A stretch of DNA of 64,000 bases, from contig CAVVNJ010000008.1 of NCBI GenBank assembly GCA_963749595.1, positions 191,054 to 255,053 on the forward strand, given 5' to 3'. Source of the stretch: Candidatus Woesebacteria bacterium (lineage in GTDB: Bacteria; Patescibacteriota; Microgenomatia; UBA1400; UBA1396). This document shows positions 13,377 through 53,009 of this stretch, in pieces. A program made the position numbers and the translations under genes. The notes below the pieces were generated by a model. That model saw nothing but the letters and a program-made list of their open reading frames with translations, did no database searches and was not told the DNA's origin. The stretch's first letter is position 1, and every line of letters starts with the position of its first letter.

Positions 13377-13382
13377 GATTAA

Positions 13383-13799
13383 GTGATGTTCAGATGGCAG
13401 CGCTGGTTAGCCTACTTACCCGCTCTAAGTTGGTACGCTTTTATTTATTGGCTTTCCAGTCACCCCAAGTTGCCGGGTCCGGAAGATAAGTTATTAGAAT
13501 TCGTCTGGTTTAAAACCGCCCACGCTATTTTTTACGCGATTTTAGCGGTTTTAACTCTGTTTGGGACCCTCATGGTCTTCGGCCAACCGAAAAATAAGTC
13601 AGAAAAGATCCTATTCTTGGGTGTTTTTCTGGTGGTGGCGGCGCTGGCGGTTTTTGATGAGCTGCACCAAGCCTTTGTTCCGGGTCGGCATCCGATGGCC
13701 CGCGACGTGGTGATCGACTCGCTGGCGGCCGCAGCTGTACTCTTGGGATTCTCAAGGTATAATTGGGGTCGGAGGAAATTTCTCCTACCCGGGATGTAG
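13383..13799 (+). CDS. VanZ-like membrane protein
   Basis: Four TM segments and the DELHQAFVPGR motif characteristic of the VanZ family. The stop codon lies inside the first bases of the tRNA. Confidence 0.6.
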   Translation: MMFRWQRWLAYLPALSWYAFIYWLSSHPKLPGPEDKLLEFVWFKTAHAIFYAILAVLTLFGTLMVFGQPKNKSEKILFLGVFLVVAALAVFDELHQAFVPGRHPMARDVVIDSLAAAAVLLGFSRYNWGRRKFLLPGM

Positions 13800-13864
13800 C
13801 TCAGATGGCTTAGAGCGCACGCATGGGGTGCGTGAGGTCGCTGGTTCGAGTCCAGTCATCCCGA
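13790..13864 (+). tRNA. tRNA-Pro (anticodon GGG)
   Basis: Hand-folded cloverleaf: acceptor CGGGATG/CATCCCG, D arm GCTC..GAGC, anticodon stem CACGC/GCGTG with loop ATGGGGT, T arm GCTGG-TTCGAGT-CCAGT. No CCA is encoded. Confidence 0.85.
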
Positions 13865-13909
13865 CTCGATGAGGTTTGCATCTACGCTTGTGGTTGCTAC
13901 AATGACCTA

Positions 13910-14674
13910 ATGAAGAGAATCAGCTACGAAACCCCAAAAACCTCCGAAATAACCGAGCATAAAGTACTAGGCACCATTGATGCCAGTCAAATCCCAGCTA
14001 GTTATGGCCTGGTGACCGTTGATGCTCTTCATCACGAGTGGGTGGCAACCGACGATACGGCTGACGTGCGTCTTTGGCTGGATCCCAAAACCAAGGATCG
14101 GTCCAGTATTTCTACCAAGACTGTCAATCTGGATCAAAATACAGCGTTGTCTGCCGCTCATCTATCCGAAGCCGATGCCGCGAGTTTCGCCAATTCACTG
14201 CCCAAGCAATTTCAGGTCGCCAAATCAGCGGAAAAAACTCATTTCGAGTACGCGGTTGGTAGTGGTGCTTCTGCTCGTCACCCGATAGAAATCGTTCCCC
14301 AGTCTAATTCCACCGGGGCGGATATCGCGACGCTGCATCTAGCTTTTGCCAGGACGGTTTTTGCGACTAAGCGCCCGCTTTTTGCGGAAATGAACATGGC
14401 GTATGCTTACGAGCCTGAGGGAAATAAGGTTAAAATTACGGTTTCAGTGACTTATTCTCCGCCGCGCTCTTTCGACGAGATTGATCGGGATCGTAAAGCT
14501 AAGCGGGATGTTTCTCCTAAGGAAATTCGTTATCATGACTATCTAATTGATAATCCAGATATTTTTCTGGATCCGGAGGAATGGTCCCGACAGCAGTCAG
14601 GGCTTCCAAATCTTCGCTTGGCCGAGGAAATATTTCAGGACGTTCAAGCTAGAATCCAACAGAAAAAGTTTTGA
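13910..14674 (+). CDS. hypothetical protein
   Basis: ORF with the internal ATG 13910 chosen, because the track start at 13823 lies inside the tRNA. No recognisable motif. Confidence 0.4.
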   Translation: MKRISYETPKTSEITEHKVLGTIDASQIPASYGLVTVDALHHEWVATDDTADVRLWLDPKTKDRSSISTKTVNLDQNTALSAAHLSEADAASFANSLPKQFQVAKSAEKTHFEYAVGSGASARHPIEIVPQSNSTGADIATLHLAFARTVFATKRPLFAEMNMAYAYEPEGNKVKITVSVTYSPPRSFDEIDRDRKAKRDVSPKEIRYHDYLIDNPDIFLDPEEWSRQQSGLPNLRLAEEIFQDVQARIQQKKF

Positions 14675-16493: not shown

Positions 16494-16567
16494 AGATTAG
16501 CAGATCCTCAGATTAACCAAAATGACATATTGGGATCCAAGTAAAAGGGAGCCGCTAAAACTTTTCT

Positions 16568-16846
16568 ATGCTACACTTCCTCCAAATAGGGAGGATGTCT
16601 ATGTCAGAGTACATTCGCGTTGCTATTGATTCTACCCAGGATCCTATTTGGAAGGCCGTGCGGGCCATTTTCGATCTATTTATTGCTGAGCGACTTTCAA
16701 TGATTAATGAACTCATGCCAATTCGAGATGTTGTTCCGGTCGAAGGAACGACCAACGAGTTTGATTTAGAAATATTAGATGGCTCTCAGGAAGACGTTGC
16801 TTCCAGATTGCAAATGCTTCCGCAAGTCAAAGTAATTACTCGATAA
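16568..16846 (+). CDS. hypothetical small protein
   Basis: ORF only. The likely start is further in, at MSMSEYIR (about 16595). Confidence 0.3.
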   Translation: MLHFLQIGRMSMSEYIRVAIDSTQDPIWKAVRAIFDLFIAERLSMINELMPIRDVVPVEGTTNEFDLEILDGSQEDVASRLQMLPQVKVITR

Positions 16847-16875
16847 GAAATAATTAAAGCATAAGGAAGGAATTC

Positions 16876-17175
16876 ATGGTCGAAAAAACTCACGCTGATG
16901 TGGTGCGCGAATATCAACAGCAAATGGAGAGACGGGGAATTTTGATGGCCCGCCTTTGGGATCGGGTGGCGGAAGTGGTGAGAAACTCTCCTGACCAAAA
17001 AATCGAATGGAGGGAATTGATCTCACTCGTGCGGAAAGAATTGGACGCCGTAGTTTTGCACAACTTTAATGAAAATTCATTACTCGCCTGTTTAGTGTTC
17101 GGTGACAACCCGCGCGATTTACGAACCCGTGATGAAGCGGGTGGCAAGCTCGTGGTTTACCGCCGTACGCGTTAG
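16876..17175 (+). CDS. hypothetical small protein
   Basis: ORF with an AGGAAGG Shine-Dalgarno-like sequence upstream. No motif recognised. Confidence 0.35.
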   Translation: MVEKTHADVVREYQQQMERRGILMARLWDRVAEVVRNSPDQKIEWRELISLVRKELDAVVLHNFNENSLLACLVFGDNPRDLRTRDEAGGKLVVYRRTR

Positions 17176-17203
17176 TTGACTTTTGTGCTGACGGACCCGA
17201 TCA

Positions 17204-18052: not shown

Positions 18053-19321
18053 CTAAACCCGGCCGCGGAGGAGCACCGCGGTCACAACTCGTTTGACGGC
18101 CAAGACATAGGCGGCCTGACGGTAGGCGAGTGATCGCTTCGTAACCATATCCTGGATAGCAGAGAAAGCTTCAAGTTGGTGAGCCCGCAATTCCTCGTTG
18201 ACCCGTTCTTTGGTCCAGCGGTAGCCGTGTAGATTTTGTACCCACTCGAAATAGCTGACGGTCACGCCACCGGCGTTGCAAAGAACGTCGGGCAGAACAT
18301 CAATTTTACGCGCGAGTAGGGCTTTTTCCGCCTCCGGCGTGACCGGGCCGTTGGCCATTTCCAACACGGTTTTCGCCTGAACCAAGTTGACATTATCCAC
18401 GTCGATGGCATTTTCCAGTGCTGCCGGAACCAAGATGTCAACGGGCAGAGAGAGCAATTCTTGGTTGCTGCGGTACTGCCAATCGGACTTGGCGGCGGCT
18501 TTTTCCAATGACCCAAGTTGCTGTTTAGCCTTGGCCACCTCAGTCGGGTTAAGACCAGTGGGAAGATAAACCGCCCCGCGGGAGTCGGAGACGGCAACCA
18601 CTTGATAGCCGGAATCGAAAGCGATTTGGGCAAACCAGAAACCAACGTTACCAAAACCCTGAATGGCGACGGTAGTTTTTTTGGGGTCTAGTTTCTTGGC
18701 CTTAGCGTAGGCGTTCAAGATATAAACCCCACCCTGACCAGTGGCTTCGTTGCGACCCAGCGAGCCACCTAATTCGAGCGGCTTGCCCGTGAAAGTGGCC
18801 GGTGCTTGCTGGTTTATTTTTTGCTCGTACGTATCTAACATCCAGGCCATAATTTGACCGTCGGTATTAACGTCCGGTGCCGGAACGTCTTTCCAAGGAC
18901 CGATGTGCGGTGTGATCCAGGCGGCATAGGCTTGAGAAAGGCGTTGTTTTTCAGCGAGGGATAATTTTTTTGGATCCACCACGATCCCACCCTTGGCCCC
19001 TCCAAAGGGAATATCCGCGACCGCGCATTTCCAAGTCATCCAGGTGGAAAGCGCTTTTACTTCGTCTTCAGTGACGCCGGAATGAAAACGGATTCCCCCT
19101 TTGTAGGGTCCCCGGGCATCATTATGCTGACTGCGAAAAGCGAGAAACTTAGTTTCTTGCCCGTTATCCAGAGTAATGTTAAGTTTGGTTTTTAAAACTC
19201 GATCGGGTTGTTTTAAAAGCGCCACAGCCTTACGGAATCGTTGCTGGTCCTCGAATTCACCCTCGAGGAGAGGAACGATAGCGTCAAGCTGCTGCTGAGC
19301 AATGACGAATGGAGAAATCAT
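18053..19321 (-). CDS. gdhA: NAD(P)-specific glutamate dehydrogenase
   Basis: KGGIRFH, PFGGAKGG and GFGNVG (Rossmann fold). I chose the internal ATG 19321 (MISPFVIAQQ). The 92-aa N-terminal extension in the track overlaps the divergent gene. Confidence 0.9.
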   Translation of the reverse strand: MISPFVIAQQQLDAIVPLLEGEFEDQQRFRKAVALLKQPDRVLKTKLNITLDNGQETKFLAFRSQHNDARGPYKGGIRFHSGVTEDEVKALSTWMTWKCAVADIPFGGAKGGIVVDPKKLSLAEKQRLSQAYAAWITPHIGPWKDVPAPDVNTDGQIMAWMLDTYEQKINQQAPATFTGKPLELGGSLGRNEATGQGGVYILNAYAKAKKLDPKKTTVAIQGFGNVGFWFAQIAFDSGYQVVAVSDSRGAVYLPTGLNPTEVAKAKQQLGSLEKAAAKSDWQYRSNQELLSLPVDILVPAALENAIDVDNVNLVQAKTVLEMANGPVTPEAEKALLARKIDVLPDVLCNAGGVTVSYFEWVQNLHGYRWTKERVNEELRAHQLEAFSAIQDMVTKRSLAYRQAAYVLAVKRVVTAVLLRGRV

Positions 19322-22168: not shown

Positions 22169-23421
22169 CGGAGCGGCAGTATCGGTTTTGGCAGTGGGGA
22201 GTCGTGGCGGCCGCGCTACTGGTGCGTTTGCCGCTGCTGACCGGTTCTTTCTGGTTAGATGAGGCCGCTCAAGCCCTCGAAAGCGCGCGGCCGCTGACTC
22301 AACAATTTTCATTAGCCGGAGATTTTCAACCGCCATTATTTCATCTCTTGGTCGCTCTCTTGGTTCGTATCTCCAGGGAAGAGTGGTGGTTGCGGCTAAG
22401 CTCACTCTTGCCGGCGGTGGGCACGGTCTGGCTAGTCATGGGTTTCTGCCGGCGCTGGCTGGATCGGAAGGGAAGTTTGCTAGTTGGCCTGGCGGTCGCC
22501 TTTTCCAGCTTATTCGTCTTTTATTCGCAAGAACTTCGGCCATATTCCCTTGCCGTTTTTTGGGCGATTCTGGCCTGGAAATATTTTGAGGAGCAGCGCT
22601 GGCGAAAACTCTGCCTGGTGGCTACTTTGGGCATCTTTACCTCATATGTCTATCTTTTTTGGCTGGCCGCTCTATTAGCAGTCTCAATCGTGAAGCGCCA
22701 ATTAAAACCGACTTTCAAAGCGCTGTCGGTCGCTAGTTTGTTCTTCCTGTCCTGGTGGCCCCATTTTCTGGAGCAACTACGGGTTGGGCAACAACTAAGG
22801 ATGATTCTTCCTGGTTGGGAGGCGGTGGTGAGCCTACCCCAGCTAAAAGCCGGGCTACTGGTCCCCACCAAGTTTCTGACTGGTCTTTTGCCGCTCGATT
22901 GGCTGAGTTGGCAGATCGTTCTGATCGGCGGTTCTTTAGCCCTAATTTTGAGCGTAGTACTATGGGATGCATGGTCGGCTAGCCGGACAGATCAAGGCCG
23001 GGTAATCCAGTGGTCAATTTTACTGGCGTTACCCTTTGTGGCGGCTTGGCTTACTTCTTTCTTTACTCCGGTTCTGCAGCCCAAACGAGTTCTGTGGTTA
23101 GTTTTGCCCACGGCAGTTTTTCTGGGTTGGCTTGGCCGGAGGCGGTCCCAACTGGGCAAGTTAGTCATCGGGTTGTATTTTCTCTGGCAAACGGTCGGCT
23201 TGATCGGTTATTGGACTCAACCTTCCTGGCAACGCGAGAATTGGCGAACGGCCATCACCCAAATCGATAGTCAATTTTCAGCGACCAATACCGCCATCGT
23301 CTTTGGCTTCAGCAACCCTTTCTCCCCCTGGGAATGGTATCCCCATCAGGCTTACCAAACTTACTCGACTGGACTTAGTCCGCTCCGAGATTTGGAACAG
23401 GTTAGAGCCGCGTTGACCTGA
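22165..23421 (+). CDS. polytopic membrane glycosyltransferase, GT39/ArnT-PMT-like (C-terminus may continue in another frame)
   Basis: About 11 TM segments, the early motif FWLDEA, and paralogy to 44871-46517. See the finding on the downstream +1 frame. Confidence 0.6.
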   Translation: MTERQYRFWQWGVVAAALLVRLPLLTGSFWLDEAAQALESARPLTQQFSLAGDFQPPLFHLLVALLVRISREEWWLRLSSLLPAVGTVWLVMGFCRRWLDRKGSLLVGLAVAFSSLFVFYSQELRPYSLAVFWAILAWKYFEEQRWRKLCLVATLGIFTSYVYLFWLAALLAVSIVKRQLKPTFKALSVASLFFLSWWPHFLEQLRVGQQLRMILPGWEAVVSLPQLKAGLLVPTKFLTGLLPLDWLSWQIVLIGGSLALILSVVLWDAWSASRTDQGRVIQWSILLALPFVAAWLTSFFTPVLQPKRVLWLVLPTAVFLGWLGRRRSQLGKLVIGLYFLWQTVGLIGYWTQPSWQRENWRTAITQIDSQFSATNTAIVFGFSNPFSPWEWYPHQAYQTYSTGLSPLRDLEQVRAALT

Positions 23422-23630
23422 TCTGGAGCATTATCGCTACGTCATTGTCTTCGATTATCTGCGGGACCTCACCGATCCTTACCGACTCATCGAAGCCCGG
23501 CTGGCGGAAATGAAGTATCGCCGTCTGGGGGAGTATACCTATCCGAATCTGGGAATTATCCGTGTTTTCGAACAGAATCAGTTGTATGCTGAAGGCGCAG
23601 TATGGCCCATCCAACGAACTGTCGGTCCTG

Positions 23631-24726
23631 ATGGATGTTTCCTCGATTCCGTACGGACGGGGGGTATCGCGTTATACCAGTAATTTAGTACCGCGCTTGG
23701 CTTCCCGGCCCGAGATCAAACTCAGCCTGTTCGGCGTGTTCGCGCGGCCATTACGCGGAGCTTTATGATTGGGCCGCGCAGTATGGCTCGCGGGGTCAAT
23801 AAACATATCTGGAAGTTTCCGCCGCGTTGGCTGCAAATATTGTGGCGGACCGCCGGGGTGCCGCGGGTTGAATGGATCGAGCCCTCGGCAAAAGTGTTTC
23901 ACGCCTGGGATTGGCAGTTGGCGCCGATCGGCCGGGTGCCGCAAGTGGTGACGATTCATGACTTGGCGTACCGACTTTTTCCCGAAACCGCTCATCCGGA
24001 TGTGCGTGACCCAATATGATCGCCTGATCGCCACGCTGGAGAAGCAGCCGCAGATGCAGGTTATTGCCGTGTCCGAAGCCACCAAAACCGATATTGTCAA
24101 TTTGACCGCCATTGCGTCCGATCGAGTGCACGTGGTTTACGAAGCCTTGCCGGAGGAAGCCAGAGTGGTGCCGTCTGAAGACCGAGCGGAGCGGGGTTTT
24201 GGCGCGCTTGGGATTGCACCGACCGTTTCTACTGGCGGTGGGTACGACCGAACCGCGCAAAAACTTAGGCCGAATCATTGACGCCTGGAAGAAAATTAAC
24301 GATCGGTTTGATTTGGTTATTGCGGGTGCCGCGGGTTGGGACAAGTTGGAGCAGGTTGCGGGCATTCATTATCTGGGTTATGTTACGTCGACCGACCTGG
24401 CTGCTCTTTACCGTAGCGCTCACGCTCTAGTCTTTGCTTCCCTGTACGAAGGTTTTGGCTTGCCGATACTGGAGGCCTACTTCCATCGGTGTCCAGTGGT
24501 GACGTCCAACGTCTCCAGTATGGCCGAGATTGCCGGGCCGCCTGCGATTCTGGTTGACCCGTATAATGTTGAGATGATCGCCGAGGCCTGTTTGGCCATT
24601 GAGTCTCCGGAAACCGCGGCGCGCAAACGACGGATCAAGGATATGCAGGCGGTATTAGAAAAATTTTCCTGGCAGCGGGCAGCGGAGGAAACCGCTCGCG
24701 TATACCGCCTGGCCGCTCGGGAGTGA
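23631..24726 (+). pseudogene. glycosyltransferase family 1, reading frame broken at least three times
   Basis: GT1 sequence is spread over frames 0, 2, 0 and 1. The pieces are VLMDVSSIPYGRGVSRY, then VVTIHDLAYRLFPE, then VIAVSEATKTDIV..RVHVVYEAL, then FLLAVGTTEPRKNL..SLYEGFGLPILEA. Confidence 0.65.
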
Positions 24727-26358: not shown

Positions 26359-26927
26359 TTCGCACTTTGACCGGCCGACCGCAAGCTTTTTTTGAAGAGG
26401 GCGTGGTTTTGGAGGTGGGCGGGGTTGGTTATGAGATTTTTTTGGATCAACCAACTCAGCGCCAACTGGAGACGGTTGAGCAGACTACTCTGCAGATTTA
26501 TACCTTGGTGAGGGAAGAGGCTTTACAGTTATTTGGTTTTCGTTCCGCGGACGAAAGACAGCTGTTCGTTCAACTCTTGTCAGTAAGCGGGGTGGGGCCA
26601 AAATCGGCGCTGCATGTTTTAGCCAATGGTGCGGCGGCGGTGCGCCAGGCAATTCGCCATTCCGACGTGGCCTTTTTCCAAGCCGTACCGCGGCTGGGCA
26701 AGAAAACCGCGCAAAAAATCATTGTTGATCTGCAGTCCAAGTTGGGGGCCGAGGCCGAGTTGGATTTGGCTCCTCCAGGGTCGCTCAAACATGATTTGCG
26801 TGAGGCTTTGCTCGGCTTGGGCTACGACGAGCGTTCCATTCAGAGCTTGATGCGTTCCGTTGATGATTCCTGGTCGATTGAGGTCGCGCTTAAATGGGCG
26901 CTGCGGGAATTGGGGGCCAAACGATGA
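26355..26927 (+). CDS. ruvA: Holliday junction DNA helicase RuvA
   Basis: OB-fold N-terminus, HhH motif SVSGVGPKSAL, and its position between ruvC and ruvB. Confidence 0.85.
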   Translation: MIRTLTGRPQAFFEEGVVLEVGGVGYEIFLDQPTQRQLETVEQTTLQIYTLVREEALQLFGFRSADERQLFVQLLSVSGVGPKSALHVLANGAAAVRQAIRHSDVAFFQAVPRLGKKTAQKIIVDLQSKLGAEAELDLAPPGSLKHDLREALLGLGYDERSIQSLMRSVDDSWSIEVALKWALRELGAKR

Positions 26928-27877
26928 GTCCAGTGGAGTCAGTGATCACGCCGGAAGAAGAACAGCTTTTTACGTCGCTGCGGGCGGCGGCGTGGCCGGA
27001 GTTTCAGGGTCAGGACCAGGTCAAGGAAGCCTTGCAGGTGGCCATCGCCGCCGCCCGTCAACGCCAGGAAGCCCTTGAACACACTTTGCTGTACGGCCCG
27101 CCGGGATTGGGTAAAACGACACTCTCCCATCTGATCGCCCAAGAAATGGGGGGACAACTGCGGACGGCCAGCGGTACAGGCCTTTCAAAAATTGGTGATC
27201 TAGCGGCTATCTTGACCAATCTAAATCCCTACGACGTCCTATTTATTGACGAAATTCACCGTTTGCCCAAAGCGGTTGAGGAAACGCTCTATCCCGCCAT
27301 GGAAGACTTTGTTTTGGATATCGTTCTTGGCAAAGGGCCATCGGCTCGGGTCGTACGTTTGGATCTGCCGCCGTTCACGCTGATCGGGGCCACCACGCGT
27401 TTTGGTTCGCTGTCCGGTCCATTCCGGGATCGCTTTGGCATGGTTCACCGCGTCAAATATTATGATCCGGAAAATCTAGGTCGCATTATTGGTCAGGCGG
27501 CAGGAAAACTTGGCGTCACCATTGGCGAGGTAGAGAGCGGACATTTAGCCCGGCGATCACGAGGGACACCCCGGATTGCGCTACGCCTGTTAAAACGTGT
27601 GCGGGATGTGGCTCAGTTGGCCGGTTCAGCGGCGATTGAGGCGCAGCATGTCGGTGAGGCCTTAAGATTGCAGCAAGTTGACGAAGAAGGTTTGGATGAA
27701 CATGATCGTCGTTATCTTCAAATTTTGCGGGACCAGTTCGCTGGCGGTCCGGTGGGAGTGCAGACCATGGCGGCCGCGCTTTCCGAAGACCCGGGGACGC
27801 TGGAAGAAGTGATCGAGCCTTACTTAATGCAGATCGGCAAGCTCAAACGAACGGCGCGCGGCCGCATGTTAGTATAG
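26924..27877 (+). CDS. ruvB: Holliday junction DNA helicase RuvB
   Basis: Walker [10 protein letters not shown], Walker B FIDEIHRL and sensor GTPRIA. ATG 26924 overlaps the ruvA stop. Confidence 0.9.
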
Positions 27878-27881: not shown

Positions 27882-28487
27882 ATGTCATCTCCTTTCCACG
27901 ATCGCATGGGACAGCCACTTGCCTGGTCGGCGGCATTTAAGAAAATCTTTCGCCGCTTCATCGCTTATGGCGAAGATTTCGAGCTGCTCTGGCTGGCTTG
28001 GGTAGCGGAAGTTCCGCTACATTGGTTCCGGCGGTTTTTTTTCCGTCTGGCTGGGGTGAAAATTGGACCAAAATCAACTGTGCACATTGGGGCAAAGTTT
28101 TACGCTCCGCGGGGCGTTTCAATCGGCGAGGGAACTCTGGTGGGGGATCATTCCGTATTGGATGGGCGAGCTAAGTTGATGATCGGTAGTCACGTGGATA
28201 TTGCCTCCCAAGTGATGATCTACAACAGTGAACATGATCTTCAGGCTGACGATTTCCGACCGGTTGATGCTCCGGTTAAGATTGGTGATTACGTCTTTAT
28301 TGGTCCGCGGGCGATTATTTTGCCTGGCGTTTCGATTGGGCGGGGAGCGGTGGTGGCGGCCGGGGCGGTGGTGACCAAAGACGTTCCGGAAAGAACAATC
28401 GTTGGTGGTGTTCCGGCGAAGTTGATTGGCGAGCGTCCACTGACGGATTTTCAATATCGACTAGGTCGACCGCGGTTGTTTCAGTGA
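27882..28487 (+). CDS. hexapeptide-repeat (LbH) acetyltransferase
   Basis: Repeated [LIV]G-x4 hexapeptides ([31 protein letters not shown]). Confidence 0.75.
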
Positions 28488-28530
28488 GTTCGGACGTATT
28501 TTTCACAATCCTCTTCACGGGTTCGGACAT

Positions 28531-29075
28531 CTATATCCTCCCAGCAATTTACGCCCAAAATGGTCCGTAAATGATCCTGAGATGTTCCCTTAATGTTCCA
28601 CTATTGGTCCCGATTTAGTCCTGGTTGGTCGAATAAGGACCGTTTAGGTGCCTTTAGAGTGCCGACTTTAAATTGGGGACTTTTTGAGTGCCTTTTGCGG
28701 ACCATTAATTTTAGAGAACTAGATCGGTTGCAGAGGGTGGTAGATATTGGGACCTAAGGTCGATCGAACGTGATAATTATGAACCTAACCCTACCCGACT
28801 TCATTCCCTGGACTCAAATAGTCCCAAAAGAGTCCCTAGTTTTAAATTGGCACCCAGATGGCTCACTAATGATCCCCAAATTACCACTATGGACGTAAAT
28901 GGCACCCAAATGTTCCTCCCAGCGGATCTTTTCAATGCCATTACCTACCCATTTGAGGCGCAAATTGGTGGGGAGATATGTATTCCCAGCCATATAAACT
29001 CGACCATCCGGTTTCATGGGAACTTCAGGACTAATTTCTATGTACTAGTGTACTAGTACATGAAAATGGGGGAGA
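28531..29075 (-). repeat. left arm of a diverged inverted repeat of about 0.5 kb (pairs with 34294-34773)
   Basis: My hand alignment of the reverse complement of this segment to 34294-34773. A 36-nt block including the palindrome is identical. A 180-nt block differs at 31 positions. The central part aligns poorly and has a length difference of about 65 nt. Confidence 0.8.
29040..29061. promoter_or_regulatory. near-perfect 22-nt palindrome ATGTACTAGT-GT-ACTAGTACAT (tandem TGTACTAG octamers); candidate operator
   Basis: Read directly from the sequence. It is identical, as the reverse complement, at 34306-34327, and forms the best conserved part of both repeat arms. Confidence 0.4.
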
Positions 29076-29143
29076 TATTTTTTCCGGCTGTTAGTTAATT
29101 GTCACGCAAACATTTTTCGAAGCCAAAACAATTTTTTTGCCCC

Positions 29144-29172
29144 TTGTGTCGGGCTGATTTCCGGGTTATAAA
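29144..29172 (+). promoter_or_regulatory. possible sigma70-type promoter upstream of mraZ
   Basis: TTGTGT (29144-29149), a 17-nt spacer, then TATAAA (29167-29172), about 40 nt before the mraZ ATG. This is a pattern match only. Confidence 0.3.
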
Positions 29173-29213
29173 AGTGAATAGGGAGAAAAAGGAAAAGTAT
29201 CCTAGAAAAAAAC

Positions 29214-29655
29214 ATGTTACTTGGGAAATCCTATCACCTGCTCGATTCACAACGACGGGTGACTGTCCCGAAAAAGCATGAGGGGCGAACTTGGCAGCGC
29301 ACCGATTTTGACCCGCGGCCTGGATGGCGGACTTTTCCTTTTACCGGAGCCATTCTGGTCCTCGCTCGTGAACAATCTGGAGAATCAACCTTTTACCAAA
29401 AAACGGGCCCGCGATTTTTTGCGTTTGATGAGCAACGATGCTTATCCAGTGGAACCGGATCGCTTGGGTCGGATCACAATCCCCGAGGCACTGGCCAAAC
29501 TGGCCGGCTTGGGGAAAGACATCGTGGTAGTCGGTTCTCTCCAGTATGCCGAAGTTTGGGATCGTGACCGCTACCATCAGTATCTGGAATCAATCGCCGA
29601 TCAGGCGGAAGAAATTGCCGAATCATTGGAATGGGGAGAAGACCATGCACATTAG
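29214..29655 (+). pseudogene. mraZ: transcriptional regulator MraZ, split by a 1-nt frameshift next to the A5 run 29271-29275
   Basis: Frame 0 gives MLLGKSYHLLDSQRRVTVPKK, carrying the first DxxxR motif. Frame +1 from 29278 gives RGELGSAPILTRGLDGGLFLLP...PDRLGRITIP, carrying the second DxxxR motif. Together they make a full-length MraZ. Confidence 0.75.
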
Positions 29656-30526
29656 CGTTTTGAAAACCGAAAGCATCGCCGGACTCAATATCAAGGCTGG
29701 CCGTTGGTATCTGGATGGAACCTTTGGCCGGGGCGGTCATACCCGGTCAATTTTGGATGCGGGTGGCAAAGTGATCGCTTTTGATCTGGATGAGCAAGCC
29801 ATCGAATTTGGCCAAAAAGAATTCGCCAAGGAGCTGGAAACGGGCCAGCTGCGCCTGGTCCATAGCAACTTTGCTAACTTGAGTCGGGAGTTGTTTGGTA
29901 TGGGTTTAGAACAACCCAGTTTGCACGGCGCTCTTTTTGATTTAGGAATGAGCTCCAATCAATTGGAAGAATCCGGTCGTGGCTTTTCATTTCAAAAGGA
30001 TGAACCGTTAGATATGCGTATGAGCCGCGAGCTCGGCGTGACTGCTGCTGATTTGGTTAATGCCTTACCGGAGAAACATCTAAAAAATCTCTTTTGGGAG
30101 AACGCTCAGGAGACATTTGCTAGCCCGATTGCCCAAGCGATCGCGGAACGCCGCCAAACCCAGCCTTTCCGGACCACTAAGGATTTGGCCGAGCTGGTGA
30201 CGCGGATTAAACGGGGTCGCGGCCATACGCATCTGCACCCGGCGACCAAAATTTTCCAAGCTCTCCGGATTGCCGTCAACATGGAGCTCGATAACCTGAC
30301 GGTCATGTTGGACCAAGTTCTTAATTGGCTAACTCCGGGTTCTCGCTTGGTGGTGATCAGTTTCCATGAAGGAGAGGATCGGTTGGTCAAACACCGATTC
30401 AAGATATGGGAAGACCTGGGAAGGGGCGGGCAAACCACTAAAAAGCCGGTCGAACCAGAGGAAGAGGAAGTGACGGCTAATCCGCGCAGTCGAAGTGCCA
30501 AGCTAAGGATTTTTGAGGTCGTATGA
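29645..30526 (+). CDS. rsmH: 16S rRNA (cytosine1402-N4)-methyltransferase RsmH
   Basis: DGTFGRGGHT SAM motif, FDLGMSS and SFHEGEDR. I chose ATG 29645 (MHISVL). Confidence 0.9.
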   Translation: MHISVLKTESIAGLNIKAGRWYLDGTFGRGGHTRSILDAGGKVIAFDLDEQAIEFGQKEFAKELETGQLRLVHSNFANLSRELFGMGLEQPSLHGALFDLGMSSNQLEESGRGFSFQKDEPLDMRMSRELGVTAADLVNALPEKHLKNLFWENAQETFASPIAQAIAERRQTQPFRTTKDLAELVTRIKRGRGHTHLHPATKIFQALRIAVNMELDNLTVMLDQVLNWLTPGSRLVVISFHEGEDRLVKHRFKIWEDLGRGGQTTKKPVEPEEEEVTANPRSRSAKLRIFEVV

Positions 30527-30792
30527 TGGGAAGAATTGGTAGTTTAATCTTGATTATTGCCCTTTTTGTGGGTGCGGTACTGGCGGCCGGAGCAACCGTC
30601 ACGACTTCTTATCAGTTAGCCAAACTCGATCAGCGGGAGAAAGCCGCGTTGGCCAAGCAGCGAATCTTGAAGGAAGAGTATGCTCAAGCCAGCTCTCTTC
30701 AAACCGTGTTACGCTATGCCCGAACGGAGGGATTTATCCAGGTTGGCGAGGCAAGCACGCTAAGTCTGAGTCCCTCTCTGGCTCAGCGCTAA
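30523..30792 (+). CDS. FtsL-like small bitopic membrane protein
   Basis: 89 aa with an N-terminal TM segment and a short coiled segment. The position between rsmH and ftsI supports the call. Confidence 0.5.
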   Translation: MMGRIGSLILIIALFVGAVLAAGATVTTSYQLAKLDQREKAALAKQRILKEEYAQASSLQTVLRYARTEGFIQVGEASTLSLSPSLAQR

Positions 30793-30796
30793 CGAT

Positions 30797-32545
30797 ATGA
30801 TTGATTCCATTGCGACTTTAAGTCTTTGCCAGCGTCGTTTGCGGGTTTGGCGCTGGAGTATCGCGCTAGTGGGCATCGTTTTGCTTTCTCGTTTGGCCTA
30901 CTGGCAGTTGTGGGAGCACACCACTTTGTCCCAAGCGGCCGAGATGCAATATGCCGTTAGCCGACCAATTCAGACCAGTCGAGGCACGATTTATGATCGG
31001 ACGGGGAAAATTTTAGCCACGAATCAGGAACGCTTCACCTTATTCGCCGAGCCCTTTCGTTTGTCCAGCACCACTGACTCCCTGGTCGAGCAGTTGGTTC
31101 CGATTTTGGAAAGTTCGCTTTGGGAAAATTTGTCACTGGCAACTGATGCCGCCACACTGGCAGACAACCGCAAATCACTGAGTCAGAGTTTGGCCGAGAC
31201 CTTGCAACAACGAGAGCGGCGCTGGCTGCCGTTATTTCACCGCTTGACCAGAGAGCAAAAAGACCAGATTGCTGCCTTGAATATTTCCGGACTCGGGTTT
31301 GACCCGCGGGGCTACCGGTTGTATCCCGACGCCTCAGTGGCGGCCCAATTACTCGGGTTTGTGGGTAAAAATGATCGTGGTGAGGATCAGGGGTATTTCG
31401 GGGTGGAGGGGTTTTACGATTTGGAGCTCCGCGGCCGGGCTGGGCGCGAGCAGCGGCAAACCACGGCGCTGGGTATGCCGATCGCGCTGGGTGAGTCTAC
31501 CCAGACCCGCGCCCAGCCCGGCCGTGATCTGATCCTTACCATCGATAAAGCCCTGCAGTACCGGGTCGAGCAAGCTCTGCTATCCGGAATTTCCCGTTAT
31601 CAGGCCAGTAGCGGCGAGGTAGTGATTATGGATCCCAAAACCGGAGAAATCTTAGCCCAGGCTTCTTTCCCCAACTACGACCCTAGTCATTTTCAAGACT
31701 TTGATCCTAAGCTCTACAGTAATCCGGTCGTTGCCGAGCTATATGAGCCTGGCTCGACGCTCAAAATATTGACCATTGCAGCTGGCATTGAAGAAAAAGT
31801 CATTACTCCGGATACGCCCTGTCCTCGCTGTAGTGGTCCACGGGTAATTTCCGGTTTCTCAATCCGAACTTGGAACGAAGAGTATCACCCGGATATCACG
31901 GTGCGGGATGCCCTGGCCAAGTCCGATAACACGGCGATGGTTTTCATTCAGGAGGAATTGGGGAAGGAGCGATTTCTGAGCTGGCTGAGAAAATTCGGAC
32001 TGGATCAGAAGTCCGGGGTTGATCTGCAAGGCGAAGAACAATTTGTGTTTCATCCCGATCGGGAATGGCCCACGATCGATACTGCCACTGCCGCTTTTGG
32101 CCAGGGCATTGCGGTCACCAGTCTGAATTTGGTGCGGGCGGCGGCGGCAATTGCTAACGGCGGCGTTTTGGTTACCCCGCACGTGGTGCGGACCGTAATC
32201 GAAAACGGACAGGAACTTCCGGTTAAATTTGAGGACAGTCCTCGGGTAATATCGGTTGAGACCAGTAAAATAGTGACCGAGATGATGGTGAATGCGGTCG
32301 AACAGGGCGATGCCAAATGGGCCGCGCCCAAAGACCTCCGCATTGCCGGCAAAACCGGGACGGCTCAGATTGCCGAAGGGGGAGAATATCAGGAGGACAA
32401 AACGATCGCTAGCTTCATTGGTTTTGCTCCGGCCGACGATCCGAAGTTTATTATGCTGGTTAAACTGCGCGAGCCAAAGTCTTCTCCTTGGGGTTCGGAG
32501 ACCGCCGCCCCGTTGTGGTTTGATATTGCCCGGTTTCTTTACTAA
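30797..32545 (+). CDS. ftsI: penicillin-binding protein 2 / FtsI-type transpeptidase
   Basis: N-terminal TM segment, dimerisation domain, and the transpeptidase motifs STLK (EPGSTLK), SDN (AKSDNTA) and KTGT (AGKTGTA). Confidence 0.85.
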   Translation: MIDSIATLSLCQRRLRVWRWSIALVGIVLLSRLAYWQLWEHTTLSQAAEMQYAVSRPIQTSRGTIYDRTGKILATNQERFTLFAEPFRLSSTTDSLVEQLVPILESSLWENLSLATDAATLADNRKSLSQSLAETLQQRERRWLPLFHRLTREQKDQIAALNISGLGFDPRGYRLYPDASVAAQLLGFVGKNDRGEDQGYFGVEGFYDLELRGRAGREQRQTTALGMPIALGESTQTRAQPGRDLILTIDKALQYRVEQALLSGISRYQASSGEVVIMDPKTGEILAQASFPNYDPSHFQDFDPKLYSNPVVAELYEPGSTLKILTIAAGIEEKVITPDTPCPRCSGPRVISGFSIRTWNEEYHPDITVRDALAKSDNTAMVFIQEELGKERFLSWLRKFGLDQKSGVDLQGEEQFVFHPDREWPTIDTATAAFGQGIAVTSLNLVRAAAAIANGGVLVTPHVVRTVIENGQELPVKFEDSPRVISVETSKIVTEMMVNAVEQGDAKWAAPKDLRIAGKTGTAQIAEGGEYQEDKTIASFIGFAPADDPKFIMLVKLREPKSSPWGSETAAPLWFDIARFLY

Positions 32546-32557
32546 AATAACCTCGAG

Positions 32558-33754
32558 ATGATATTCCTCACTGTCCGGAAAATTAACCATTTTTTTCGCT
32601 CCCTCTGGTTCAAGGCGATTCCGGCCGCGATTTATTATGGTTTTCCTGGCAAAAAGTTGTTAGTTTATGGCATAACCGGGACAGATGGAAAAACTACTTC
32701 CTCAACCTTGCTCTATCACGTTCTCAAGACAGCCGGATATAAGGTGGCACTTATTTCGACCGTGGCCGCTTTCATTGGTGATGAGGAAATAGACACTGGT
32801 TTTCATGTGACCTCGCCGGAGCCGTGGGCCGTTCAAAAACTGTTGCGAACTTGTTTACAAAAAGGGGTCGAGCACGTGGTGCTGGAAGTAACTTCGCACG
32901 GCATCTTCCAATTTCGGGTGTGGGGCATTGATTTCGCTTTGGCCGGTTTGACCAATATTACCCCCGAACATCTGGATTATTTCGAAACCTACGACGATTA
33001 TGCCAAAACTAAAGGCGAATGGTTGCTGGGTGCCAAACAAGCCGTTCTGAATGAATCCGACCGCTCCTTTCCCCTCTTACGATCGATGTTTCAGCAGCGA
33101 CGGAAAGCTTTTCTGACTTACTCCCAAGAACTCGATCAGAGTGCGATCGATCGAATCATCACGGCAAAGTTTGATCAACCTTACAACCATTGGAATGCCA
33201 AATTGGTGCTGACTATGGCTCGTAAACTGGGTATCGCCGATGAAGTTTTTATCGAATCAATTAAGACTTTCCCAGGAGTGCGGGGGCGGATGCAGTCGAT
33301 TCCCAATACCCGTGGGCTGGAAATAGTGGTCGATTTTGCCCATACGCCGAATGGTTTAACCCAAGCCCTAACCGCCCTGCGGCCAAAAGCACAGAAAAAT
33401 TTAATCGCGGTTTTTGGGTGCGCGGGTCTTCGGGATCGGACTAAACGGGCGCCGATGGGGAAAATTGCCGCTGAGATTGCTGATCTCTGTATTTTTACCG
33501 CCGAAGACCCGCGCACCGAAGATCTTCAGGTCATCTTACGCCAGATGAAGGAGGGGGTTGCCGAGCCCAATCACCGTAAAATTGTGACCATTCCCGACCG
33601 AAAAGCAGCGATTGCCTTTGCGTTATCGCAAGCCAAAAGGGGCGACGTGATCGGTATCTTTGGCAAGGGTCACGAAAAATCGTTTAGCGTGGGCAAGAAA
33701 GAATATCCTTGGTCGGACCAGGAAGTGGTGGCGCAGCTACTAGAGTCGGCATGA
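32558..33754 (+). CDS. murE: Mur ligase, MurE-like (short N-terminus)
   Basis: P-loop GITGTDGKTTSS and a central Mur ligase domain (NITPEHLDY). The position after ftsI supports the call. Confidence 0.7.
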   Translation: MIFLTVRKINHFFRSLWFKAIPAAIYYGFPGKKLLVYGITGTDGKTTSSTLLYHVLKTAGYKVALISTVAAFIGDEEIDTGFHVTSPEPWAVQKLLRTCLQKGVEHVVLEVTSHGIFQFRVWGIDFALAGLTNITPEHLDYFETYDDYAKTKGEWLLGAKQAVLNESDRSFPLLRSMFQQRRKAFLTYSQELDQSAIDRIITAKFDQPYNHWNAKLVLTMARKLGIADEVFIESIKTFPGVRGRMQSIPNTRGLEIVVDFAHTPNGLTQALTALRPKAQKNLIAVFGCAGLRDRTKRAPMGKIAAEIADLCIFTAEDPRTEDLQVILRQMKEGVAEPNHRKIVTIPDRKAAIAFALSQAKRGDVIGIFGKGHEKSFSVGKKEYPWSDQEVVAQLLESA

Positions 33755-34221
33755 AAAAAATCATTCAATCAGGGGAGCGGCAATTTGTCGTTTCTCTGCT
33801 ATTGGTAACTGAGAACAATCCAAAAAAAATATTATTAGTGCATCATAAAAAATTAGACTCATGGCTACAGCCGGGCGGGCATATCGAGCCCTTTGAAACG
33901 CCGGTCGAGGCGGGGATCAGGGAATGTTGCGAGGAAACTGGTCTGGATATTAGTGAATTGCTGCGACCTGGCAAACACATTGATGCTTACGCTTATCCCC
34001 TACCATTACCGCGTTTTATTCTGGAAGAAAAAATACCGGCTTATGGTGATCAACCGGAACATTTTCACATTGATTTACTTTATCTGATTCCGATTGCCGA
34101 ACAGGCTGTCACACATCGGGAATCCGAAGCTCACAATATTGGCTGGTACACCTGGGAAGAAGCCGCTCATTTAAAGCTGTTAACCAATGTTCGTTGGGTT
34201 CTGCAGCAGGTGCTGGGATAA
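33751..34221 (+). CDS. NUDIX hydrolase
   Basis: Nudix box GGHIEPFETPVEAGIRECCEETGL. ATGA overlap with murE. Confidence 0.8.
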   Translation: MKKIIQSGERQFVVSLLLVTENNPKKILLVHHKKLDSWLQPGGHIEPFETPVEAGIRECCEETGLDISELLRPGKHIDAYAYPLPLPRFILEEKIPAYGDQPEHFHIDLLYLIPIAEQAVTHRESEAHNIGWYTWEEAAHLKLLTNVRWVLQQVLG

Positions 34222-34293
34222 GATCTCGGCAACCTAAATGTTTCCCCCGACAGTCCCCGGAACAGATAAGATCGTTTATCATGCACCAACACC

Positions 34294-34773
34294 CCTCCCA
34301 TTTTCATGTACTAGTACACTAGTACATAGAAAACAGCCCTGAAACTCCTATGAAGCTAGGTAGTCGAGTTTGTGGCCAGGAATATATATCTCCCCAGCAA
34401 CTTGCGCCTCAAATGGGTTGTTAATGGCATCGAAAAGATCCGTTGGGAGGAACATTTAAGTACTGTTTACGTCCAGTTCGGCAATTTAGGGACTTTTTCT
34501 GAGTCATCTTGGTGCCAATTTAAAACTAGGGACTCTTTGGGGAACGTTTGAGTCCAAGGTGTCAAGTTTAGTAAGGTTGTATCCCTGATTGTTGCGTTTG
34601 GTCCACAAAAGGCACGAGGAAAGTCCCCGATTTATAGTCGGCACCCTAAAGGCACCCAGGAGGTCCTTATTCGACCAATCGGGACTGAATCGGGATAAAT
34701 CATGGACCTTTAGGGGAACAACTCCGGATCCTTTGTGGACCATTTCGGGCGCAAAAACCCGGAGGGATATCGA
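34294..34773 (+). repeat. right arm of the diverged inverted repeat (pairs with 28531-29075)
   Basis: See the left arm. It begins with CCCATTTTCATGTACTAGTACACTAGTACATAGAAA, identical to the reverse complement of 29037-29072. Confidence 0.8.
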
Positions 34774-34875
34774 TATCCAAACTCGTGAAGAGAATTGTGA
34801 AAAGTCCCATGCTTGATGTTCAAAGAATTCAGCCAGGATTTGACTTCCCTCGCCAGGTTAGGTAGCCTAGCACTC

Positions 34876-35883
34876 ATGACAGAACAGCGACCTTCCGTGG
34901 TGGTGTTGGGCGGCGGCACCGGCACGTTCATGATGCTTACCGCTCTCAAGCGACTTCCGGTGGATTTGACTGCGATTCTGACAATGGTCGATGATGGCGG
35001 CTCCAATAAAATTTTGCGCGACCAGTTTGGCTTGCTGCCGACCTCTGGTATTCGCCAGGCGGTGGTAGCACTTTCCGATGACGAGTCGCTACTCCGTGAA
35101 CTATTTAACTATCGTTTTCATCAAGGCGAAGGTATTCGCGGCATGACCTTTGGCAATCTTTTTTTGGCGGCGTTGACCGATATTGTTGGTTCACAAAAAG
35201 AAGCCATTGAAGAGACCCAAAAATTACTACGCGTTCGGGGCAAAATTATGCCAATTTCCTACGATGACGTCCGATTAGTGGCGACCTATGCGGATGGCAC
35301 CGAAATTATCGGCGAGCACCTCATCGATGAACCCACTCACACCGAGCCAAAACGAATAATTGCACTCCGTACCGAGCCACTTGCTCATCTCTCGTCTGAA
35401 GCCGAACAAGCCATTTCACGAGCCGACTACGTAATCCTAGGTCCGGGCGACTTTTTTACCAATACGGTAGCTAATTTCGTCGTTGAAGGACTCGCTGAAG
35501 CGCTCAAAAAAAGCCCGGCTAAGAAAATTTTTGTCGGCAATCTGATGACCAAATTTGGCGAGACTCCCGATTACACCTTGCGTAATTTCTTAGACGATAT
35601 CAATCAGTATTACGGTTTAGACGGACTCGATTATGCCGTCGTCAACGATAACCTTGATATTCCTGCCGAGGCTTTGGCACTGTACGCCGAGCAAAAAGCC
35701 GAACCAGTTCGGGACGATGTGGAAGGGGAAGATTACCGGGGGGTGAAAATTATCCGGTGTGACCTGATCGCGGATCAAGTATTCACTGCCCCTAAAGGTG
35801 ACCAGCTTTCCCGTAGTATCCTGCGCCACGACGCCGAGAAATTCGCACGATTATTCGCGGAGAAATTTTTAGCCCAGTTATGA
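34876..35883 (+). CDS. YvcK/CofD-family (UPF0052) protein
   Basis: VVVLGGGTGTF N-terminal motif and CofD-like length. I prefer ATG 34876 because the track start at 34813 lies in the repeat arm. Confidence 0.8.
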   Translation: MTEQRPSVVVLGGGTGTFMMLTALKRLPVDLTAILTMVDDGGSNKILRDQFGLLPTSGIRQAVVALSDDESLLRELFNYRFHQGEGIRGMTFGNLFLAALTDIVGSQKEAIEETQKLLRVRGKIMPISYDDVRLVATYADGTEIIGEHLIDEPTHTEPKRIIALRTEPLAHLSSEAEQAISRADYVILGPGDFFTNTVANFVVEGLAEALKKSPAKKIFVGNLMTKFGETPDYTLRNFLDDINQYYGLDGLDYAVVNDNLDIPAEALALYAEQKAEPVRDDVEGEDYRGVKIIRCDLIADQVFTAPKGDQLSRSILRHDAEKFARLFAEKFLAQL

Positions 35884-48066: not shown

Positions 48067-48865
48067 ATGAAATCGCACCGCCAGCATTCCCTGTCCGTGG
48101 TTTACGCCACCTTTAATGAGGAAGCCAATTTGGCTCAAGTCGCTCGGACAGTATTAAAGATCTGGCCGATGAATTGATCGTGGTCGATGGCTAATCGACG
48201 GATCGAACGCCGGAAATCGCCAGGGAGTACGGCGCCAGAGTCATCAAGACGACCAACAAGCCGATCTTTCACATCAACAAGCAGATGGCCATGGACGAGG
48301 CCAAGGGCGACTGGACGCTGCAAATGGACGCCGACGAGGTGGTGGACCAACCGATGCGTGTCGACATTGAACGGATTCTGGCTGCCGATCCGGCCTCACA
48401 GCCGGCCGGGTTCTGGTTGCGCCGAAAGAATTGGTTTCTGGGTAAATTCCTGACCAAAGGCGGCCAGTATCCGGACCCGGTGATTCGGTTTTATCAGACC
48501 GGCACAGGCCAAGTTGCCGATGAAGTCGGTACACGAACAGATGGCGGTCGAGGGGGAAGTCGGTACGCTTGCCAGGCCACCTCTTGCATTACAACTCGCC
48601 CAGTTTTTCCGATTACCTGCGCAAGGCTAACACCTACACTACTTTGACCGCGCTGGAGATGGAAAAGGCCAAGGTGCCGCTCAACGCCCTGAGTTTTATC
48701 AAGTATTGTCTTTGGCTGCCGAAGAAAACTTTCTTTTTACTTTATTTCCGGCATAAAGGCTTCATGGACGGTTTTCCCGGCTTCATTTTTGCTTTGTTTT
48801 CCGGTTTGCACCATTTTTTGGCGTACATCAAGTACACGGAGCTGCGCCGGCAGACTAAGCCGTGA
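48067..48865 (+). pseudogene. glycosyltransferase family 2, three frameshifts plus an in-frame TAA (48192-48194)
   Basis: The GT2 pieces lie in different frames. They are LSVVYATFNEEANLAQ, then KDLADELIVVDG*STDRTPEIAREYGARVI...QMDADEVV, then VHEQMAVEGEVGTL, then GHLLHYNSPSFSDYLRKANTYT. Confidence 0.65.
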
Positions 48866-49945
48866 GAGTTTTGCTGGATACTTCGCCGCTTTTAAACGCG
48901 AACGAAACCCGCGGGGTTGGGACTTATACGCGCGAATTATTGCGCGCCCTCCGTTCATTATCCGGCCTAGCCGAACCGTTGGTGGTGCAGGCGACCCACG
49001 AAGTCGGTGTAATTCAGGAGCCGGAAAAACATTTCGATTTGATTCATTATCCCTATTTTGATTTATTTTTTTCCACCTTACCCCCCAAAGCCAAACTGCC
49101 GGCGGTGGTGACGGTTCATGACGTGATCCCGCTGGTTTTTCCGCAGCAGTATCGACCTGGAATCAAGGGCCGAGTACGTTTTCAACGGCAGAAGCGGCGT
49201 TTGCGCCAGGCGGAGGCGGTACTGACTGACTCGGAAGCCTCCAAACGGGATATCCGCCAGCACCTGGGTATTGCCGAGAATCGACTGTTCGTCGTTCCAT
49301 TGGCGGCCAATCCCGATCTCGCTGAACCGACCGAATATTTGCAGCAGAAAGTCAAACAGGATTTGTCGTTGCCGGGAAAATACGCGCTTTATATCGGCGA
49401 CATTAACTACAACAAGAATTTGCCGACTTTGCTGCTGGCTCTGACCCAAGTCGATCCGAGCATTCATTTGGTGGTGGTGAGCCAGACTTTCAACAATGTG
49501 GCTATTCCGGAGGGCCGGATAATTTCGGAAGTGATCGCGCGCAACGATTTGGACGGATCGAATCCACGTGCTGTCGATTCCCAAGGATCAGCCCGGATAT
49601 CTGTCGGCGGTGATTGCTGGCTCGCGTTGTCTGGTCCAGCCCTCGCTTTATGAGGGTTTTGGTTTGCCGGTCGTGGAGGCGCTGCGGGTCGGGACGATGG
49701 TGGTCTGCGCCAATACTTCTTCTTTGCCGGAAGTGGCGGGGGAGGCGACGATTATGGTCGACCCGACGATTGCCGGCTTGGGTGACGGGATCATACGCGC
49801 CATGGGATTGCGCGGCGAGGAGCGCCAAGAATGGATTCGGCGGGGACAAAAACAGGCCAGAGAGTTTTCCTGGGAGCAGACGGCGCAGCAAACTTACCAA
49901 GTGTACGAAGCCGCGCGGCGGTTTTATGCCGGGGAAAAACCATGA
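48862..49945 (+). pseudogene. glycosyltransferase family 1, one frameshift (about 49555)
   Basis: The N-terminal frame gives MRVLLDTSPL..GVGTYTREL..VVTVHDVIPLVFP. The C-terminal frame gives RIHVLSIPKDQ..QPSLYEGFGLPVVEA. Confidence 0.65.
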
Positions 49946-53001: not shown

Positions 53002-53009
53002 GGAGGCGC

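Follow-up and report, generated by a model that had tools for sequence, protein, structure and literature searches.

Why should two inverted copies of a 0.5-kb sequence bracket a block of division and cell wall (dcw) genes? The question is raised by a 64,000-nt stretch of DNA from a Candidatus Woesebacteria bacterium (contig CAVVNJ010000008.1, positions 191,054 to 255,053; hereafter the window, to which all unqualified coordinates refer), in which two related arms lie in opposite orientations on either side of mraZ-rsmH-ftsL-ftsI-murE-nudix. What our analysis establishes most firmly is that both arms are copies of one dispersed non-coding repeat, independently inserted on either side of a conserved block. 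The bracketing of the dcw genes is most likely a by-product of two separate insertions. We put at about 55% the probability of the fuller reading, namely that the repeat is a non-autonomous mobile element resembling a miniature inverted-repeat transposable element (MITE), that it was inserted twice independently, and that its position around the dcw genes is incidental. The repeat family appears to be previously undescribed and peculiar to this Patescibacteria lineage.

The two arms and the sites they occupy

The two arms, both intergenic, are located as follows.

28500-29079, plus strand: left arm, the left copy of the repeat, following a hexapeptide acetyltransferase gene (stop codon at 28487) and preceding the promoter of mraZ; the relative L003 lacks this arm
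34288-34803, minus strand: right arm, the right, inverted copy, between the nudix stop codon (34221) and the promoter of a cofD/yvcK-like gene; missing in the relatives L002 and L001

A sequence-only reading of this DNA, made before our analysis, had proposed two inverted arms of ~0.5 kb with limits at 28531 and 34773. The arms are real. In a MAFFT alignment, 28500-29079 and the reverse complement of 34288-34803 were ~80% identical over ~520 nt, and blastn of the arms against the window gave expect values (E) of 6e-75 and 1.6e-50. The homology held at the proposed limits, but the outer ends reach ~30 nt further, to 28500 and 34803. A repeat search resolved the similarity into three collinear inverted pieces (28500-28704/34599-34803, 80%; 28759-28992/34373-34606, 78%; 28996-29079/34288-34371, 82%). 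The same reading had noted an identical 36-nt block and a central length difference of ~65 nt. The former was recovered at 29035-29070, which is 100% identical to the reverse complement of 34297-34332, and the latter took the form of a 62-nt block (~28705-28766) aligned in the left arm only. With the 102 differences placed at random in 509 compressed columns, an identical run of 36 nt would arise with P ~0.025 and one of 28 nt with P ~0.16. The arms measure 516-580 nt, and their G+C content is 44-45.5%, versus 51% for the window. Neither arm, used as a blastn query, found a third copy in the 64-kb window.

The closest relatives, L001, L002, and L003, have the same gene order as the window and RsmH proteins that are 74-84% identical to the one encoded there. 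In L003 (RsmH 84% identical), the hexapeptide gene and mraZ are separated by a 175-nt spacer without the left arm, and in L002 and L001 (74-75%) this site is occupied by an unrelated minus-strand open reading frame (ORF) of 202 or 265 aa. The spacer between nudix and cofD is 32 nt in L002 and 16 nt in L001, and neither contains the right arm. Empty sites in related genomes, a mark of MITEs, were thus found for both arms, and the arms are not ordinary conserved flanks of mraZ. Because they are absent from the relatives and each lies between a stop codon and the next promoter, both appear to be lineage-specific insertions. The left arm is not a remnant of the minus-strand ORF of the relatives, to which it shows no similarity.

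The enclosed dcw block is collinear with that of L001-L003 and, since gene order and strand match, it is in the ancestral orientation. A composite transposon or insertion sequence (IS) ends around the block were rejected, as no transposase was found and the block has not moved relative to L001-L003. No transposase, integrase, or transcription factor was detected among ~57 ORFs of the window scanned against Pfam (a set lying outside 9671-14674, 49831-53930, and 61726-63764), and the arms are not ends of a recognizable IS, in agreement with the earlier statement that they do not look like IS ends.

Additional copies were found through ORF translations. A profile of the ORF common to both arms retrieved P0125 (59 aa, from a 176,697-bp contig), whose identity to the arm translations is 66-68%. 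The profile built from the opposite-strand ORF retrieved P0126 (67 aa; two contigs, the longest 188,675 bp), whose cluster-mate P0127 (118 aa, 40,345-bp contig) is at least 90% identical to it. All three come from NCBI/ENA records, and their alignments to the arms span almost the entire element; there were no other matches to these profiles among 5.8 billion proteins or, with HMMER, among 1.84 billion protein representatives. The repeat would therefore have at least five copies, the extra ones distributed over three or more further contigs, probably from the assembly to which the window belongs. It is small, non-coding, and dispersed in multiple copies, as expected for a MITE, two of the five or more copies deduced being seen as DNA. 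Some copies are at least 90% identical, which suggests recent spread. As the relatives keep the dcw block without arms and further copies lie on other contigs, the special link between arms and block that had been implied is not supported. A palindrome scan of genome contigs, with one genome per species, detected no copy in Patescibacteria. A phage or plasmid origin was rejected as well, since blastn found no match among 50,697 phage and 72,556 plasmid records. Arm-specific 17-21-mers gave only chance matches in IMG/VR and JGI metagenomes.

The repeat is non-coding. The arms had been described as unannotated and without a long ORF; there is indeed no coding signal, but ORFs of 54-79 aa exist, and two of them in the left arm, P0121 and P0122, are called in the deposited annotation. 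The differences between the arms are evenly distributed over codon positions in all six frames, and stops occur in every frame. The single ORF that is open in both arms has a ratio of nonsynonymous to synonymous substitutions (dN/dS) of ~0.38, and the antisense frame behaves likewise. ORF lengths differ between copies (54, 67, and 118 aa), and across the open frame of P0127, the right arm is interrupted by three in-frame stops, and the left arm would have to change frame. None of the element ORFs matched Pfam, and the AlphaFold model of P0127 had a predicted local distance difference test score (pLDDT) of 33. A coding gene was rejected on the basis of the six-frame substitution counts, dN/dS, Pfam, the 1.84 billion protein representatives, and the structure model. 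Rfam 15 gave nothing at the gathering threshold and only chance-level matches up to E 10, and no convincing or conserved promoter or terminator was found in the arms.

Inverted half-elements, phased hexamers, and a palindrome

Each arm contains a foldback made of two opposed half-elements of 165 nt, 49-58% identical to each other, and, outside this foldback, a palindrome.

28533-28697, plus strand: left arm, outer half-element, with hexamers phased every 11 bp and five consecutive TGNTCC-N5 units at 28561-28610
28698-28814, no strand: left arm, variable center, including the 62 nt absent from the right arm
28815-28979, minus strand: left arm, inner half-element, the inverted partner of 28533-28697 (58% identical, ungapped)
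29035-29070, no strand: left 36-nt identical block, ~55 nt outside the foldback, with core 29040-29061 = ATGTACTAGT-GT-ACTAGTACAT
34297-34332, no strand: right 36-nt identical block, with core 34306-34327
34386-34550, plus strand: right arm, inner half-element, the foldback partner as recognized by profile and alignment
34606-34770, minus strand: right arm, outer half-element, with phased GGNNC units at 34704-34752

Plain DNA self-alignment showed the palindrome only, the foldback requiring more permissive scoring and profiles. Positions 28533-28685 paired with 28827-28979 at 59% (E 3.5e-8), and a whole-element nhmmer profile matched the opposite strand of both arms (left arm, 28988-28525, E 7.7e-23; right arm, E 8.8e-10). 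All four half-elements can be aligned over 165 nt with no gap, and 66 of the 168 columns are invariant. The center of the foldback differs in length between copies: ~117 nt in the left arm, ~55 nt in the right, and ~21 nt in the one encoding P0127.

In the outward direction, the outer half consists of 11-nt units such as GGACCAATAGT GGAACATTAAG GGAACATCTCA GGATCATTTAC GGACCATTTTG. The hexamers TGNTCC / GGANCA recur with a period of 11 bp, which the outer half keeps most strictly. Runs of four phased GGNNC units occurred four times in the window, always in the arms, compared with an expectation of 0.02, and five in a row of TGNTCC-N5, the unit read inward, were found only in the arms. A tally by phase over 14 units from both outer arrays showed almost no variation at the hexamer's G, T, C, and C, with spacers that vary within A/T. 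The spectral power of G/C versus A/T at 11 bp placed the outer halves in the top 0.4% of the window and the inner halves at the 82nd-90th percentile. Direct repeats spaced 10-11 bp center to center, as in sites of the OmpR/PhoB type, are therefore present. The motif GGGGAGATAT stands at the end of the foldback (28970-28979) and again at the inner terminus of the left arm (29069-29078). A generic version of the phased pattern gave >120 matches in viral contigs; none was homologous by nhmmer, and they were rejected.

If the halves of an element paired with each other, they might be expected to resemble each other more than they resemble those of the other element. Yet the similarity was 0.58 and 0.49 within elements and 0.58 and 0.52 between them, which indicates that motifs rather than pairing have been kept. 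The conserved feature looks like a set of DNA sequence motifs, not a helix.

The palindrome had been described as one of 22 nt. The inverted half-sites are indeed present, but the whole is not a full palindrome, consisting of 10 + 2 + 10 nt with a central GT that is not self-complementary. It contains GTACTAGT-NN-ACTAGTAC, the inverted CTAG-containing half-sites of a TrpR-type operator, exactly at 29042-29059 and 34308-34325. The natural sequence of the classical E. coli trp operator bound by TrpR is GAACTAGTTAACTAGTAC (PMC11748629). The arm palindrome shares the half-sites and spacing of this operator but, unlike it, is not embedded in a promoter, and the 64-kb window encodes no TrpR or GntR homologue detectable by tblastn. 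We looked for ATGTACTAGT-NN-ACTAGTACAT (20 specified bases) in one genome per species and found it at 66 loci (L004-L069), most of them in Acidobacteriaceae and none in Patescibacteria. At 54 of the 66, a -35-like TTGNN hexamer directly abuts the palindrome. In L069 (4458-4479, Acidobacteriaceae context), the gene downstream of the site encodes a GntR-family regulator. In the Halomonas locus L013 (2959-2980), an identical 22-mer adjoins a Trp_repressor-family gene and an ORF that is TrpE-like, as judged from its sequence. Two regulator families thus appear to be tied to the same trp-operator-type site. By this comparison, the arms carry a bona fide operator-type sequence, placed outside a promoter context, in line with the operator that the sequence-only reading had postulated.

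Two related observations were made in the relatives. A degenerate arm palindrome with TTTTC...GAAAA flanks (27 of 33 positions) lies in L001 at 18475-18511, just upstream of nudix and next to lineage-specific inserted genes (a 414-aa ORF, a 695-aa ORF, and an SNase gene). In L003, the spacer between the hexapeptide gene and mraZ contains a perfect 16-nt palindrome, CTGTACATATGTACAG (1937-1952). Its form, CTGT-N8-ACAG, is that of an E. coli-type LexA box.

A proposed mobile element and the alternatives to it

We favor a MITE-like element because the repeat is multi-copy, with old and young copies, has empty sites in relatives, is intergenic and low in G+C, and is built of inverted halves carrying arrays of sites. 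In such an element, a transposase supplied in trans would bind the phased subterminal repeats. The two arms would have landed independently, in opposite orientations, in permissive intergenic gaps flanking mraZ-rsmH-ftsL-ftsI-murE-nudix, each gap immediately following a stop codon and shortly preceding a conserved promoter, and for this reason the bracketing of the dcw genes would be incidental. The arms face their downstream promoters with different ends, as expected if orientation at insertion is random. We infer the mobility, the transposase, and the lack of any function for the dcw genes.

Several observations weigh against this explanation. The partner transposase was not seen among the ~57 ORFs scanned in the 64-kb window. 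The shared unit extends ~33 nt and ~100 nt beyond the inverted halves, so that these are not terminal. Common termini could not be drawn, and the candidate target-site duplications disagree: the left copy is flanked by a perfect TATTTTT (28497-28503 and 29076-29082), the right copy by the imperfect GGATAAGAT / GGATTTGAC (34216-34224 and 34836-34844; 7 of 9 positions), which implies different boundaries. The 36-nt block (P ~0.025) and the 66 invariant columns, in halves that are otherwise ~50-58% identical, suggest that some of the sequence is under selection, which a purely selfish element would not need. The extra copies are known from ORF translations alone, and a shared genome is only probable for them. 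Finally, two of ~five copies lie within 6 kb, for which the chance is ~0.1-0.2, assuming a genome of 0.7-1 Mb.

The main alternative that we considered is that the arms act in cis as protein-binding DNA modules, with the phased hexamers presenting one helix face to a cooperative binder, either a winged-helix regulator of the OmpR/PhoB type or another oligomerizing protein. The palindrome would then be a TrpR-like or GntR-like operator, and the copies could regulate the dcw genes, insulate them, or titrate the factor. Though unlikely, this explanation would account for the restriction of five consecutive TGNTCC-N5 units to the arms, the near fixation of the hexamer G, T, C, and C in 14 units with A/T spacers, the 66 invariant columns, with motifs kept in place of pairing in halves ~50-58% identical, and the identity of the palindrome in both arms. 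The hexamer-N5 geometry with its 11-bp period is that of OmpR/PhoB-type regulators, and in other phyla the 22-mer abuts -35-like hexamers (the 54 of 66 loci mentioned above) and adjoins GntR or TrpR genes. Yet no such regulator is encoded in the scanned parts of the window, the arm palindrome has no surrounding -35 or -10, the arms present opposite ends to the neighboring promoters, the relatives run the same operon without arms, and at least 15 sites per half is far above any known regulator site. Somewhat less likely, the repeat, rather than being selfish DNA, might serve as a multi-copy chromosomal platform on which the opposed arrays nucleate a protein filament or DNA wrap, formed by a winged-helix regulator or some other oligomerizing protein, with the palindrome as anchor or control site and the pair delimiting or co-regulating the mraZ-nudix segment. 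If this were true, the two copies would mark a cell-wall and division segment in a reduced genome with few regulators. We are slightly more doubtful that each copy encodes a long structured RNA of rod-like shape, in which the halves would pair and the palindrome would form a separate hairpin. Both strands of both arms folded better than shuffled controls (z -3.2 to -4.0), and RNAalifold proposed a rod of 143 pairs with its tip in the variable center and seven double changes. One of four tests of pair retention was favorable, with 24 broken pairs versus a mean of 33.7 under random substitution; the other three were not significant. If the halves were the strands of a stem, they should have co-evolved, and within an element they have not. 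The halves are only 49-58% complementary, ~25% of columns are non-wobble mismatches, and the wobble pairs show no strand asymmetry. Furthermore, neither a conserved promoter or terminator nor a match in Rfam above chance level, even at E 10, was found.

The remaining explanations have little to recommend them. It is very unlikely that the arms are degraded versions of an orphan gene encoding a small protein of the P0127 kind (118 aa, inward frame), its stop codon directly followed by the palindrome acting as a hairpin. One copy does have an open 118-aa frame across nearly the whole element, and the inward-frame match to P0127 ends within ~30 nt of the palindrome in both arms. However, no homologue was found outside the element family and no match in Pfam, the P0127 model has a pLDDT of 33, changes are not in excess at the third codon position, stop positions differ from copy to copy, and a period of 11 nt in the DNA is not characteristic of coding sequence. 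We give hardly any credence to pairing of the arms in one long transcript as a processing stem, or to their use as substrates for inversion of the 5.2-kb dcw segment, both of which the sequence-only reading had entertained. The arms are ~80% complementary over ~0.5 kb, and the identical 36- and 28-nt blocks could support rare RecA-mediated exchange. Against this, the conserved promoter of mraZ is inside the bracket, downstream of the left arm, relatives with the same operon lack both arms, other copies are on other contigs, the segment is in its ancestral orientation, and no recombinase was found among the ORFs scanned. It is just as improbable that the arrays represent an extended series of MraZ-binding repeats or, as in oriC, arrays of the DnaA type. 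MraZ does bind series of direct repeats upstream of dcw clusters (PMC8475190), and the opposed-array geometry matches that of E. coli oriC (PMC6070618). Yet there are copies away from mraZ, the relatives have no arms, and the arm motif is unlike published MraZ boxes. A replication origin was rejected because the arms contain no DnaA box with up to one mismatch and the GC skew keeps its sign across the 64-kb window. Of the three explanations offered by the sequence-only reading, the closest was a small cassette with its own operator: the arms are copies of one repeat unit, but the outward-facing gene or known non-coding RNA that it invoked was not found.

Gene neighborhood and comparison with known systems

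Homologues of RsmH place the organism in Patescibacteria (candidate phyla radiation), the named matches being Woesebacteria, Saccharimonadia, and 'Patescibacteria group'. According to Pfam, ruvB (26894-27877) and the hexapeptide acetyltransferase gene (27882-28487) precede the left arm. The bracketed genes are mraZ, rsmH, ftsL, ftsI, a Mur ligase gene (murE, 32558-33754), and nudix (to 34221), and beyond the right arm lie the CofD/YvcK-like gene (ATG at 34876), murC, and murB. Two promoter-like sequences adjoin the arms.

29144-29172, plus strand: TTGTGT-17-TATAAA before mraZ, just inside the left arm, kept together with its leader in relatives; hexamers assigned by eye
34840-34868, plus strand: TTGACT-17-TAGCCT just past the right arm, 7 nt ahead of the ATG of the cofD-like gene (34876) and found in L002 as well

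As the second of these stands 7 nt before the ATG (window 34840-34878) and is shared with L002, cofD-murC-murB may have its own promoter and an almost leaderless transcript. In L002 (~14573-14613), the nudix stop codon overlaps the -35 of this shared promoter. The dcw region lacks murF, mraY, murD, ftsW, and murG between murE and murC (window 32558-34221). In L001 (12932-18438), extra genes, namely the 414-aa ORF, the 695-aa ORF, and the SNase gene already mentioned, lie within the block, which indicates that the block tolerates insertions in this clade.

The mraZ gene (29214-29655) is frameshifted relative to its homologues (CCCGAAAAAGCATG versus CCCCAAAAGCATG), with an extra base in 29267-29276, which includes a run of five A at 29271-29275. 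The deposited annotation retains only the 125-aa C-terminal part (P0123), the first half of the protein being missing. In a short-read Logan contig that encodes an identical RsmH, the mraZ frame is open; the frameshift is thus probably an assembly error or a strain variant. Three further conserved genes, one encoding a homologue of a 482-aa protein and two encoding GT4 glycosyltransferases, are split over two frames (22201-23599, 23613-24714, and 48859-49918), which points either to indel errors remaining in the assembly or to several pseudogenes. With four or more conserved genes frameshifted in the assembly, small indels should not be relied on in the arms, whereas the substitutions and the 62-nt block should be sound. 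Elsewhere in the window, a 710-nt gap without any ORF of at least 100 aa (16494-17203) separates two divergent ORFs without a Pfam match; the gap itself matched nothing in Rfam and does not resemble the arms.

If the arms are insertions as we propose, the apparent oddity of the locus disappears: core division genes are neither the cargo of a mobile element nor framed by a conserved processing stem or an inversion switch. What remains is an undescribed interspersed repeat family with an unusually regular anatomy, in Patescibacteria, where such elements are little documented; our search of the literature on MITEs in this group returned nothing relevant.

Bacterial MITEs and interspersed intergenic repeats are exemplified by the Correia elements of Neisseria, ERIC, and RUP. 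Like bacterial MITEs, the repeat is <0.8 kb, non-coding, multi-copy, intergenic, and lower in G+C than the genome; it contains an inverted-repeat foldback, has empty sites in relatives, and can carry protein-binding sites. It differs from them in lacking well-defined termini and a consistent target-site duplication, and no partner transposase was found for it. Furthermore, in place of short terminal repeats it has inverted halves of considerable length (165 nt) and age (~50-58% identical), and it combines a strict array of hexamers phased every 11 bp with a separate operator-type palindrome outside the foldback. The ends of Tn7-, Mu-, and Tn402-type transposons carry several subterminal transposase-binding sites with a period of ~20-22 bp. 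The repeat resembles these ends in having two opposed arrays of short sites, but it has a site period of 11 bp, no 5'-TG...CA-3' terminus, and no transposase.

The 9-mers of E. coli oriC reportedly form two oppositely oriented arrays, an arrangement attributed to Rozgaja et al. 2011, as cited in PMC6070618. In the DnaA-oligomerization region of this origin, clusters of 9-mers are separated by 2 bp (PMC6070618). The repeat is like this region in its two opposed arrays of 11-bp period around a center and unlike oriC in that it is multi-copy, contains no DnaA boxes, and is not accompanied by a switch in GC skew. MraZ boxes, for their part, are direct repeats located upstream of dcw clusters (PMC8475190). 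As for the palindrome, in contrast to the trp-operator setting, the same site precedes a GntR-family gene in Acidobacteriaceae.

Regulators of the OmpR/PhoB family, for example ArcA, bind 2-5 direct repeats spaced 11 bp center to center (PMC3798270). The repeat has many more units, in two opposed arrays and in multiple copies; yet, like the sites of these regulators, it is composed of direct repeats of a hexamer and a 5-nt spacer with an 11-bp period. If a host protein does bind these arrays, they would provide a handle on gene regulation or chromosome organization in organisms not yet grown alone.

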